This document shows positions 3,484-63,185 of a DNA stretch of 64,000 nt, piece by piece. The notes beneath the pieces were generated by a model. It saw only the letters and a program-made list of their open reading frames with translations. It was not told the DNA's origin and ran no database searches. Position numbers and translations under genes: made by a program. Source of the DNA: Elephas maximus (Eukaryota); the NCBI RefSeq assembly GCF_024166365.1, contig NC_064841.1, positions 46,631,680 to 46,695,679 on the forward strand, written 5' to 3'. The first letter of the stretch is position 1, and the number at the start of each line of letters is the position of its first letter.

Positions 3484-3927
3484 ATGTTCCTGATGCCAGC
3501 CTCTTTGGAATTAAACAATGGGCAGAACTTCTTAGCTCAGTGGATGACCAATCCTTCTCGGGCTGGCGTTATATTAAATCATGGATTTCCCATTTTGGAA
3601 GCAGAAGGAGAGAATCAAGCAGCTGTGAACCTTTCTACCAGTTTTCCTGTTAAAGCTACACAGTTTTCGAATAGCTTCAGCTTTATAAATGAAGAAGATT
3701 CACTTCACGAAGAACAGAAATTGGAGACTGACAGTTCTTATAAACTACAATCAGATAAATCCAAAACACATACAGCCTTCTCTGTAACTAAAAATGAACC
3801 ACAAATAGTGGCACGTCAGGATGTTCCTGGACACTGGGAAGATAACAAAAATGACTTTATCCTAGATCTTACAAGTGAATTCAAAGGAATGGCATATAAA
3901 GACCCACTTTTTAAAAAACTGGAACAG
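3484..3927 (+). CDS. CENPJ: CENPJ coding exon 1 (human exon 2), start codon at 3484, 148 codons, ends phase 0
   Basis: [32 protein letters not shown]…[10 protein letters not shown] matches the CENPJ N-terminus from memory. Donor cag|GTAGAG at 3928; the track ORF reads on into the intron. Confidence 0.88.
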
Positions 3928-4334
3928 GTAGAGCAAGATTACCTGATACGTATTTGTGTTACTGCTGTTTATGTTGGAAAGTCACCTATTCCAGGTCCTC
4001 TGGTTTCTTCCCCCTCACTCTGAATTCCTCAGAATTCCAGAATTTCACTTTATCGCATATGAAACATTAAAAAAACTTTAAATATGTAAGATGTGCATAT
4101 AACACTTAGTATCTTGAAGTTGTTGCCTCATTTGATAAAAACTAAATTAGAAATGGTCAGTCAAATATTAGGGGGAAAAAGCTGATGATCATAAACATAC
4201 AGTTGTTCACCCTACTTTAAGAATCAGAGGGTTGATATGGGTGTTTCTGTTTCTTTGTTGAGATAATTGACGTGGTTTCCTTCATAAGATACTAGGCTTT
4301 AGATTTTTGGTAGCAGATTTAGTTAGGAACCCCT

Positions 4335-4560
4335 CTTTGAAACTCTTTATTAGGGAAGATAAGAAAAGGGAGGTGAGAGGACTAGAAGGCAGGAGGGGAC
4401 AGGAAAGCTGGTAATGGGGAATCCAAGGTCGAGAAGAGGAGAGTGTTGACATGTCGTGGGGTAGGCATCCAGTGTCACAAAACAGTATGTGTTGTTTAAT
4501 GAGAAACTAATTAGCTCTGTAAACGTTCTTCTAAAACAATAAAAAAAGGGAGGTGGGAGG
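4335..4560 (+). mobile_element. L1 3'UTR tail fragment (sense), ends in aataaaaaaa
   Basis: Aligns with 6480-6690 (…gagagtgttgacatgtYgt…gtgtcacaaaac…gtttaatgag…aataaaaaa). Confidence 0.6.
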
Positions 4561-4635
4561 GTTAAAGATAAATGTAAGGAGCAAGGGTCTATGAAGAAAT
4601 GTAGCATTAATAAGGTTAATTTTATTTTTAAAAAG

Positions 4636-4759
4636 CTGAAGGAAGTACAGCAGAAGAAGCAGGAACGACTGAAGAAGCAACAGTTAGAGCAACTACAAAG
4701 ACTCATGGAAGAACAAGAGAAGCTGCTTACTATGGTGCCTGAGCAACATAGGTTCCCAG
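4636..4759 (+). CDS. CENPJ: CENPJ coding exon 2, phase 0 in, phase 1 out
   Basis: Acceptor ttaaaaag|CTG. Encodes [41 protein letters not shown](G). Donor cag|GTATTT chosen because only a phase-1 exit keeps the next exon in frame. Confidence 0.8.
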
Positions 4760-5989
4760 GTATTTTTGTATTTTCTCTCATACAGGCCCTTCAGTTAGTA
4801 CAGTGATACATAGTTGCATACATTTCTTACCTTCAGTTGCTTCTTAGGCTATTTCGACCTTTGTCATGTGTTATAAACTGTAATCTCTCAGGGTCAGGCA
4901 GATAAATGTGTGAAATGGTGGCAGCATAATATAATTGGGACAAGTGGGGACTGTGACATGCTGGAGCGTGTGCCATGCTTAAAAGCATACACATTTATTT
5001 GGAAAAAAAAAAAATGTCCAGCAGAAGCCAAATTTGGCTCAAGGCTACTAGTTTACAGCTGCCTGGTGCATGAAAAACTGTTCAGGGGCTATAAAGGTAA
5101 GTATGTGTGGCAGCCATACCAAAAATATTTTGTGGAAGCAGATGACAGTGTTCTTTTATTGTATGTTAGATGTTTTTACAAAAAGCATGATGTGGTTCCT
5201 TATTAGGGGGAAAAAAAAACCTGTTGAAATGTGATCTGAAGGAATGGCTTTGAAAGTTGATTATACTCCATAGTAACAAAAGCATTCTGACATGTAAAGG
5301 ATATTTTCTGTTCTATTCTATTCTATGTTGTTTTATAAAATGTTGGCTATGACCTATTTCATCTGGTGATGAAATTACTAATGGAATGTGTCCCATAGTT
5401 TGAAAACCTGTGATTTGGAGTAATGTGTTTGCTTCTTGGTCCTACCTTTTAAGAGACACACTACTAAATCAGGAAAGTGCCCATTCTGTTCAGAGACTGT
5501 GCTAGGCATTGAACACACAGAGAGGAAAGGCTATTGGAAAATAAGTATGCAAAGTATGACTAGGTGGGAAACAGGGAGGTGGTGGTTAGACAGTTCAGCA
5601 AATGTACAATGGTTGAGGAAATTTTTATCTTGGAAAAGATAGATACCATGTGGATGTATGTTGACATTTTTGAATGTTCTAGATTCCTTTATGGAGTACA
5701 TAAAATGAATAATAAAGATCGCTTAAATAATAGCCTGTGATAGATTTTGAGATAGAGATAACACCATGGTAGAGTGACAGGGAGGTGATTTTGAAGCTAT
5801 TAATATGAGAAATAGCCCCATTCAGTCATGGAACAGATTGCTTTAGGGCAGTGATTTTCAATTTTTTTCATCTCAGGACCCCTTAACACTCTTAAGTTAT
5901 GGAAGATCTCTAAAAGCTTTTATTATAGGGTCTGTATCAATATCTACTATATTAGAAATTAAAACTGAGAAATTTAAAAATTAATAATT

Positions 5990-60682: not shown

Positions 60683-60763
60683 AGGTAAGAACTAGCTTCC
60701 CCTTTCCTTATTAAATTCTTCCCACCCTTTAAAAAACTAATTATATTAAACTTTTCTAAATAG

Positions 60764-60884
60764 AAAAACATTTTCCAGATGGAAGAAAAGAAATCACATT
60801 TCCTGACCAGACTATTAAAAACTTATTTGCTGATGGACAAGAAGAAAGCATTTTTCCAGATGGTACAGTTGTCAGAGTACAACG
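60764..60884 (+). CDS. CENPJ: CENPJ coding exon 15, phase 1 in, phase 2 out
   Basis: Acceptor ttttctaaatag|aa. Encodes (E)[39 protein letters not shown](R). Donor cg|GTATGA. Confidence 0.85.
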
Positions 60885-61552
60885 GTATGATATTTGTTAA
60901 ATTTAGTTTCATGATTTCAACTTTTATTACCAAGTGGGTTTTTAAAAATATAAAACATTCATATATTTATAAGACATTCAAAATTTCAGTAAAAAATATG
61001 AAATTAACCTAGGGCACTTTGGGGGAAGTAAAAAAGTTCTCAACATTTTTAGAGTTCAGAATTTGTGACATGTATATTTTTGATAAGTATTTTGCCACAA
61101 GATAGTTATGTCTTTAGCCTAGAGTTTTAAAGGGAGTTTATAAAGCATTCTATGAAATGGCAAGTATTTGTTTAGAAATAAGCTTGGTTAAATTTGGGAA
61201 CAGTGATTGAAACAGAAAATGGAGGCTGCCTGTGGCCAAACAATGACTAAGTCAGTCTTTATCTCTTCTCTTGCCTAAATTTTGAAATTTTCTTCATCTC
61301 CTTGCCCCAGCCTGATAAATACATCACCCCATCTGGCTTCTCCAACCCAGTTCTTTCAAGTCAACAACCTTTTAGAAAAATCCTTCTGAGCGTTATATTT
61401 CTTGAAGGTAGAAACTTTTTTTAAGTGAATTCTTTAGTCCATGATAAATATCTTCTTATCCCCACTGTTTTAATTAAAACCATGGTGTCCAGTGGCCAGT
61501 TTTCACCCACCTTTCCTAGGTTTTTTTTTTTTTTTTTTTCTCTAAAGTGTGT

Positions 61553-61711
61553 GGAGCCTTGGTGGCACAGTGGTATTAGAGCTATATGGCTGCTAACTAA
61601 AAGGTTGGCAGTTCGAATTCATTATCTGTTCCCTGGAAGCCCTATGGGGCGGTTCTACTCTGTGCTTTAGGGTCACTATGAGTTGGAATTGACTCGATTG
61701 CAGTGGGCAGT
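61553..61711 (+). mobile_element. AfroSINE-like SINE preceded by a T-run
   Basis: ggagccttggtggcacagtggtattagagctatatggctgctaactaaaaggttggcagttcgaattc…gggtcactatgagttggaattgactcgattgcagtggg. Confidence 0.8.
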
Positions 61712-62992
61712 GTTTCCTAGAGTGTGACAATTAAGTACCCATTAACTTGAATAAAATGTCAGTGATAACACTTAGCTGAAATCTCTGATATAAACTTGGC
61801 CAAAAAAAAAAGGTGACAGTATTAATATGGAAACTTCATATGGTCATTATAGTGTTTTTCCCTTAACATTGCCTAAGCCTTTATCTGGTGAATTAGATGG
61901 AAAACTATACTGTACTTTGAGTGATCGAAGAAACTTTTCAAGTTTTTTCTCTTACGTTTGGAATTATAATAAAAAGTAGAGAAAATGATATAAAAACTCC
62001 ATGTACCCATCTATCCAGCTATGACAGTTATTAACTCATGGTCTGTCTTTTTTGTCTATACTCAAGCAAATCCCAGGTATTAATTCATTCAGGGATTATT
62101 TTGACATTCAGATTTTTGACTTCTAACAGTGGTTCTCAAACTTCAGTGTGTATTAGATCGCCTGGAGGGATTGTTCAAACACAGATTGCTGGGTCCCACC
62201 CTAATAATTTGCATTTTTAATAAGTTTTTAGGTGATGCTAATACTGCTAATCCAGGGACGGCACTTTATAAGGCAGTGGCTCTCAGAATGACTTTTGAGC
62301 CTAACACTTGTATGAGAAATACCAAAATAGGAAAACATCATTCATTACTGCTACCTGTCCTTATATGTTCAGAAGTGGTGATTCCTAATCTAGCCCTAGT
62401 CTTGTATTTCTAACTGCACATTATACCTGTATTTAGGAATTTAGTTTGATTATTCCACAGACACATCACGCAGTCAGCTTGGAACATTAACTCTTTTTCA
62501 TATTCTACTTCTTTGTTCCATTGCTTCAAAATGGATCTAAATATTTGATCATGCTCCTTCCCAGGAATATGGCTCTCTTTTTCACCTACTACAGAGCAAG
62601 CACTCAAATGATTTTTAACTTAATACAGTGCCCCTCTCCTGCCATTTTTCAAAAGGCAGAACACATGGAAAGTTAAAAACAAAGAAAAACCAAGAATTTT
62701 GTAGTGAAAAGGTAACATGAATTTATTAAAGCAAGCTTTTTGTGGGTACACGAGTGCTAATCTGATAATTGGAACTTTCAGTGTAAGCAGAAATGTTGTG
62801 GAAAACAATGTGCAAAGAAGGTATTATACATGAAAAAGTACCAAAGGATGTCTCTAGAAGAAATACCAGAATCAAAAGGCTACTTTTACATCATTTACCT
62901 GATGTGCATTTTAGATTTAAATAATTAAAATTTACCTGTTGTATAAACTATACATTTTTTTTAAGAAATTAAATTCTATTTTAAATTTATAG

Positions 62993-63185
62993 TGATGGCA
63001 ACAAAATCATAGAGTTTAGTAATGGCCAAAGAGAACTACATACCGCCCAATTCAAGAGACGGGAATATCCAGACGGCACTGTTAAAACTGTATATGCAAA
63101 CGGTCATCAAGAAACAAAATATACATCTGGTCGAGTAAGAGTTAAAGACAAGAATGGTAATGTTTTAATGGATACAAAATTGTAA
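62993..63185 (+). CDS. CENPJ: CENPJ terminal coding exon, phase 2 in, stop TAA at 63183-63185
   Basis: Acceptor aatttatag|t. Encodes (R)[63 protein letters not shown], which matches the human C-terminus. Confidence 0.9.

Follow-up and report, generated by a model that had tools for sequence, protein, structure and literature searches.

The CENPJ (CPAP) coding region of the elephant Elephas maximus: sixteen exons in a repeat-rich locus

Introduction

Human CENPJ/CPAP (MCPH6) has 17 exons, encodes a protein of 1338 residues and spans about 40.7 kb (PMC3123551). Mutation of the LID and SAC residues in its tubulin-binding fragment PN2-3 lowers tubulin affinity about 100-fold (PMC4884677), and the substitution E1235V weakens STIL binding 9-fold and causes microcephaly (PMC3824074). 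Here, we describe CENPJ in Elephas maximus (lineage Proboscidea, Afrotheria), in a stretch of 64,000 nucleotides of contig NC_064841.1 (assembly GCF_024166365.1, positions 46,631,680 to 46,695,679 of the forward strand). This whole stretch is called the window, and all positions given below are counted from its first letter.

The window almost certainly holds an intact elephant orthologue of CENPJ (CPAP, SAS-4, MCPH6) with the usual mammalian arrangement of 16 coding exons, and no other gene lies in it. The elephant model fits the mammalian layout of 17 exons, 16 of them coding, and shares with human CENPJ the 16 coding exons, the junctions, the order of the domains, the LID, SAC and E1235 positions, and an exon 14 that is 100% identical. 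The elephant protein exceeds the 1338-residue hominid protein by 13 residues, and a difference of 6 residues in exon 9 contributes to this. From start to stop codon, the elephant gene covers 59.7 kb, compared to about 40.7 kb for the human gene, and the difference lies in the introns, which are longer because they are filled with AfroSINE, RTE and L1 insertions. The canonical exons are common to both elephants, being about 99% identical to those of Loxodonta africana CENPJ (XP_064131476-90, isoforms X1-X12), with 9 substitutions relative to our model; several predicted Loxodonta isoforms differ by a repeat-derived cassette in place of exon 7 and by another C-terminal exon. Zebrafish CPAP and Drosophila Sas-4 are distant orthologues in which the alignable part is the G-box only, plus PN2-3 for vertebrates.

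Results

Sixteen coding exons form one unbroken reading frame

A preliminary description of the window, made from the letters alone, had claimed a complete CENPJ/CPAP coding region, and we rebuilt the gene model without its coordinates, using tblastn with partial CENPJ proteins of gorilla, Myotis, pangolin, camel and Aotus as queries, followed by inspection of splice sites and joining of exons. The tblastn matches formed a collinear chain on the + strand from 3484 to 63182, and a more sensitive tblastn recovered the short exons near 49140 and 57793 as well as the exon at 60600-60684, which had been bridged in the first pass. The resulting model lies on the + strand and comprises 16 coding exons; its ATG is at 3484 and its TAA at 63183-63185. 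The exon phases are coherent, and GT-AG boundaries are present at 15 of the 15 introns. The coding sequence of 4056 nt consists of 1351 codons and the TAA, contains no internal stop, and is preceded by a stop codon in frame upstream of the ATG; its predicted product begins with MFLMP and ends with GNVLMDTKL before the stop. The rebuilt model thus coincides exactly with the 16 exons and 1351 codons at 3484-63185 described before, including the consistent frame, the GT-AG introns, the phases and both ends of the product (Met-Phe-Leu-Met-Pro to GNVLMDTKL). Two long + strand open reading frames carry CENPJ-like peptides (3484-4023, and 13157-14809, which covers the large exon), in a window that is AT-rich and of mammalian type (GC 0.34-0.43). 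The features of the model are as follows, where a slash marks a splice point.

3418..3483, + strand, 5' untranslated part of the ATG exon: acceptor ...tctgtctacag/GTGTTGG at 3416-3417, from the primate mRNA alignment
3484..3927, + strand, coding exon 1: 444 nt, with the ATG, ends in phase 0, donor CAG/gtagag
4636..4759, + strand, coding exon 2: 124 nt, acceptor aaaaag/CTG, donor CAG/gtattt
9658..9957, + strand, coding exon 3: 300 nt, lowest conservation of all exons (51% identical to hominid), absent from predicted isoform X4
11788..11899, + strand, coding exon 4: 112 nt
12719..12821, + strand, coding exon 5: 103 nt, LID motif of the PN2-3 tubulin-binding domain
13142..14771, + strand, coding exon 6 (the large exon): 1630 nt, SAC motif, a stretch alignable with the microtubule-binding domain of the human protein, and a long middle of low conservation
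26160..26292, + strand, coding exon 7: 133 nt, aligns to the human coiled-coil region
37910..38075, + strand, coding exon 8: 166 nt, aligns to the human coiled-coil region
44235..44477, + strand, coding exon 9: 243 nt, aligns to the human coiled-coil region, absent from predicted isoform X3
49125..49209, + strand, coding exon 10: 85 nt, primate mRNA block 49124-49210
57793..57857, + strand, coding exon 11: 65 nt, primate mRNA block ends at 57858
58043..58153, + strand, coding exon 12: 111 nt, acidic linker and start of the G-box, weak donor AAG/gttaaa
60361..60501, + strand, coding exon 13: 141 nt, G-box
60600..60684, + strand, coding exon 14: 85 nt, G-box, no difference from hominid (100% identity); the E1248 codon, equivalent to human E1235, starts with the final base of this exon
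60764..60884, + strand, coding exon 15: 121 nt, G-box
62993..63185, + strand, coding exon 16: 193 nt including the TAA at 63183-63185, end of the G-box
63186..63270, + strand, start of the 3' untranslated region (UTR): alignable to the primate mRNA

The product is CENPJ and not a TCP10-type paralogue

By exact look-up and string comparison, the translation is identical over all 1351 residues to centromere protein J isoform X1 of Elephas maximus indicus (XP_049723510.1, XP_049723511.1 and XP_049723512.1). Since the product of the rebuilt model does not differ from this RefSeq protein at any residue, the agreement is far beyond chance. Judged by the protein, the source of the DNA is almost certainly Elephas maximus, and a different elephantid carrying the same protein is much less probable. 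The full-length query returned full-length CENPJ from more than 100 mammals, with the elephant proteins as the best matches. In a word-indexed search, the 550-residue large exon alone found no elephant protein and no full-length CENPJ, its matches being fragments and partial models with identity of at most 74%, while the 1351-residue query finds both. In global alignments, the product aligned end to end to the 1338-residue hominid CENPJ (P0150) with 76.7% identity and 15 gap columns, and its identity was 87% to the manatee, 81% to the aardvark and 80% to the armadillo protein.

The domain content leads to the same identification. Residues 323-389 match PF25779 (Tubulin-bind_CPAP) with 84 bits against a cut-off of 22, and PF07202 (Tcp10_C) is matched by four repeats with 174.6 bits against a cut-off of 36. 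Among known structures, residues 315-424 match the human CENPJ PN2-3 fragment 5itz (E 1e-49), and the C-terminal 186 residues (1165-1350) can be aligned with no gap to the G-box of zebrafish CPAP (4bxp and 4ld1; E 8.6e-84 for 4bxp) and also align to the Drosophila Sas-4 TCP domain (4mpz and 4by2; E about 1e-46). The strongest Pfam match is thus Tcp10_C, as would be expected if the gene were a TCP10 or TCP10L-type paralogue with the Tcp10_C repeats alone in common with CENPJ. However, the product contains the CPAP tubulin-binding domain PF25779 and follows CENPJ collinearly along its 1351 residues, the 120 best database matches are CENPJ/CPAP without exception, and we dismiss the paralogue outright. 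A TCP10/TCP10L identity, that is, a short protein with Tcp10_C and without the CPAP tubulin-binding domain, is refuted by the full-length CENPJ alignment. The earlier naming of the gene as CENPJ is therefore borne out by both Pfam domains, by the matches to Protein Data Bank (PDB) structures and by the end-to-end alignment with full-length mammalian CENPJ.

Exon junctions agree with a spliced primate mRNA

The junctions were compared with a spliced primate mRNA (L001), a Logan transcript contig of 4280 nt from run SRR15003618 that encodes the 1338-residue hominid protein. L001 aligned to the window in 16 collinear blocks. Wherever the match reaches the exon end, the block ends coincide with the model boundaries or deviate from them by a few bases; at the poorly conserved ends of exons 2, 3, 9 and 12, the blocks fall short of the boundary or overrun it. 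Since the first block starts at window position 3417 (mRNA nt 99), behind a good polypyrimidine tract and an AG, the acceptor of the ATG exon was placed at 3416-3417. The basis for the junctions is therefore cross-species mRNA, protein homology and agreement with the NCBI prediction, and the end-to-end alignment with the same junctions that had been proposed as a check was obtained with both the 1338-residue hominid CENPJ and the spliced primate mRNA.

It might be that the gene is CENPJ and that details of its exons are wrong, chiefly at the short exons 10 and 11 (starting at 49125 and 57793) or at the weak donor of exon 12. These two exons are indeed small (85 and 65 nt) with weak conservation, the donor AAG/gttaaa of exon 12 is poor, and RefSeq lists isoforms that lack exon 3 or exon 9 or in which exon 15 begins at an acceptor 15 nt further in. 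In contrast, the alignment of the spliced primate mRNA has a block at 49124-49210 and another block end at 57858, the Myotis, gorilla and manatee proteins are gap-free across the junctions of exons 10 and 11, and NCBI isoform X1 gives the identical protein, which makes errors of this kind very improbable. Both exon starts, on which the preliminary description had itself cast doubt, were reproduced in the rebuilt model, and the primate mRNA agrees with them.

No evidence contradicts an intact CENPJ in the window. The non-coding exon 1 and the promoter were not located in it: L001 nt 1-98 were not found in the window by blastn-short and Smith-Waterman alignment, with a best score of 19 compared to a mean of 19.6 and a maximum of 27 for shuffled sequences. 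The first 200 nt of the window have a GC content of 0.65 and a CpG observed/expected ratio of 0.59, and the promoter CpG island of CENPJ probably begins at or just beyond the left edge of the window. The GC-rich stretch at 1-400 is probably the edge of this island, and primate exon 1 could not be aligned in 1-3417. At the other end of the gene, ATTAAA hexamers occur 3' of the stop at 63229 and 63681, and no AATAAA was found between the CENPJ stop and the window end.

An additional observation concerns intron 13, which is 98 nt long and contains a 19-nt tandem duplication at 60558-60598 (ACATTAACTTTTTGTGTTT, 2.2 copies) that forms the polypyrimidine tract and acceptor of exon 14.

Functional residues are kept and the coding sequence is constrained

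The tubulin-binding residues are kept at 7 of 7 positions, namely F338, E339 and Y341 of the LID motif and F375, K377, R378 and F385 of the SAC motif, which are the residues whose mutation affects tubulin affinity as described above. The STIL-binding glutamate is also kept, as E1248 in SSGQIEKHFPD aligns to human E1235. Exons 7-9, which align to the coiled-coil part of the hominid protein, are 78-93% identical to hominid; this is where the dimerising coiled coil between the microtubule-binding region and the G-box would lie. The nonsynonymous (dN) and synonymous (dS) divergence from the primate coding sequence (CDS), by the Nei-Gojobori method, was as follows.

Whole CDS: dN 0.121, dS 0.430, dN/dS 0.28
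G-box: dN 0.039, dS 0.427, dN/dS 0.09
Coiled coil (residues 901-1110): dN 0.078, dS 0.438, dN/dS 0.18
PN2-3: dN 0.090, dS 0.419, dN/dS 0.21
50-codon acidic linker: dN 0.245, dS 0.272, dN/dS 0.90

The low conservation in the middle of the protein (exon 3 and exon 11 are 51% and 57% identical to hominid) and the dN/dS of 0.9 in the 50-codon linker are features that a decaying or non-functional copy, either a unitary or a duplicated pseudogene that only seems complete, could show. However, other mammals likewise show low conservation in the middle part, the 4056-nt frame is unbroken over 16 exons with every splice site canonical, dN/dS, 0.28 for the complete CDS, drops to 0.09 in the G-box, where dS is about 0.43, and the tested functional residues are all kept, so that a pseudogene is barely conceivable. 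A processed copy was ruled out because introns are present. Taken together, these comparisons of coding sequence indicate that elephant CENPJ is an intact gene under purifying selection.

Alternative isoforms predicted in the two elephants

An alternative acceptor lies at 60779 (+), 15 nt inside exon 15 (ttttccag/AT), and is seemingly stronger than the canonical ttctaaatag/. Use of this acceptor accounts for Elephas isoform X2 (1346 residues, with SSGQIDGRKE) and deletes EKHFP; with it goes the glutamate that corresponds to human E1235, the position associated with microcephaly and STIL binding.

In intron 6, 145 nt at 19704-19848 (+), bounded by ccag/ and /gtctgg, form an in-frame cassette that shares its phase class with exon 7 (133 nt). 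Its translation, GRRCRHSLK...SCANRR, matches at 100% identity the segment that takes the place of the conserved coiled-coil exon 7 in Loxodonta RefSeq isoforms X1, X3 and X6. The cassette lies inside an interspersed repeat at 19503-20324, of which a second copy is found inverted at 28595-29356 with 80-86% identity; it is not used in Elephas X1 and is a predicted case of repeat exonisation. A Pfam search with the open reading frames of the cassette-bearing repeat and of the L1-like fragments gave no match.

The predicted truncated Elephas isoform X5 (1089 residues) ends in intron 9, where aaaag/CTGGACAATGAATAA at 45397-45411 (+) encodes LDNE and a stop as its C-terminus. This terminal exon lies within an RTE-like fragment (open reading frame 45404-45613), and is thus retrotransposon-derived in the prediction. 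In the last exon, an internal donor AATG/GTAATG at 63155/63156 (+) coincides with the point where Loxodonta isoforms switch to the C-terminus KDKNDSRLMEARCP; the exon that encodes this alternative Loxodonta tail is not in the window.

The cassette at 19704-19848 and the RTE-derived terminal exon at 45397 are probably annotation noise; if they were really spliced, which we consider unlikely, elephants would have CPAP isoforms of their own in which the dimerisation region is changed or cut short.

Repeats within and around the gene

Repeats with a further copy in the window make up at least 32% of its length, and no exon bases fall in these intra-window repeats (16 exons checked). Elephant AFROSINE ends in (GGTTT)n and is partnered with RTE1_LA (PMC6007223). 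In the window, AfroSINE-like copies have a tRNA-like head and tails GGATTTGGTTTTTG and GGGTTTTTGGTTTTGG of the GGTTT type. A 26-nt sequence, which we take to be the AfroSINE core, gave 9 matches at up to 3 mismatches compared to 0 expected, one of them at the 3' end of an RTE-like open reading frame. The RTE-like fragments gave RVT_1 Pfam matches that were sub-threshold only (E about 4e-5). The Afrotherian-type, AfroSINE-bearing character that had been attributed to the locus is in accord with these AfroSINE-like and RTE-like repeats in the introns and with the identity of the protein to Elephas maximus indicus CENPJ X1.

An ARAGORN call of tRNA-Ser(tga) at 36452-36542 (+) is the tRNA-like head of an AfroSINE copy (core match 36538-36563) and not a tRNA gene, and no match to Rfam, tRNA included, was obtained at gathering thresholds for the window as a whole. 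The stretch 16000-24000 has an AT skew of -0.36 to -0.38 and is T-rich on the + strand because of antisense L1 ORF2-like fragments, with which it coincides at 16147-16383 and 21484-21726; this L1-like stretch is interrupted by an AfroSINE (about 17.65-17.9 kb) and by the cassette-bearing repeat. Across intron 9, a sustained positive GC skew of 0.25-0.55 extends over 44500-49000, with a sense RTE-like fragment inside. By eye, 2941-3200 and 63781-64000 appear to be copies of one interspersed repeat (...catgtac..tttagtga..., ...aaaagagcat.atgctcaagg.aga.catttttactagttaa), the former just upstream of the ATG exon and the latter in or after the 3' UTR.

Discussion

The function of elephant CPAP can be outlined by analogy with human CPAP. 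The LID and SAC motifs of PN2-3, followed by the microtubule-binding region, would cap and stabilise the plus ends of centriolar microtubules, leading to slow processive growth (PMC4884677). The coiled coil would dimerise CPAP, and the C-terminal G-box/TCP beta-sheet would bind STIL and thereby couple the cartwheel to the microtubule wall (PMC3824074, PMC3776556). By homology with the human, zebrafish and fly proteins, elephant CPAP should have the same biochemical function.

The gene, its structure, its domain content and the exact protein are already in the NCBI computational annotation, and this is a canonical gene without novelty. The preliminary description had left open whether the locus was unannotated or only computationally annotated; the second part of this statement holds and the first does not, as NCBI already predicts the same protein. 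The exactness of the unaided exon reading validates the method of reading and adds no biology. The elephant CPAP sequence, which was previously public, is usable in comparative studies of microcephaly and brain-size genes.

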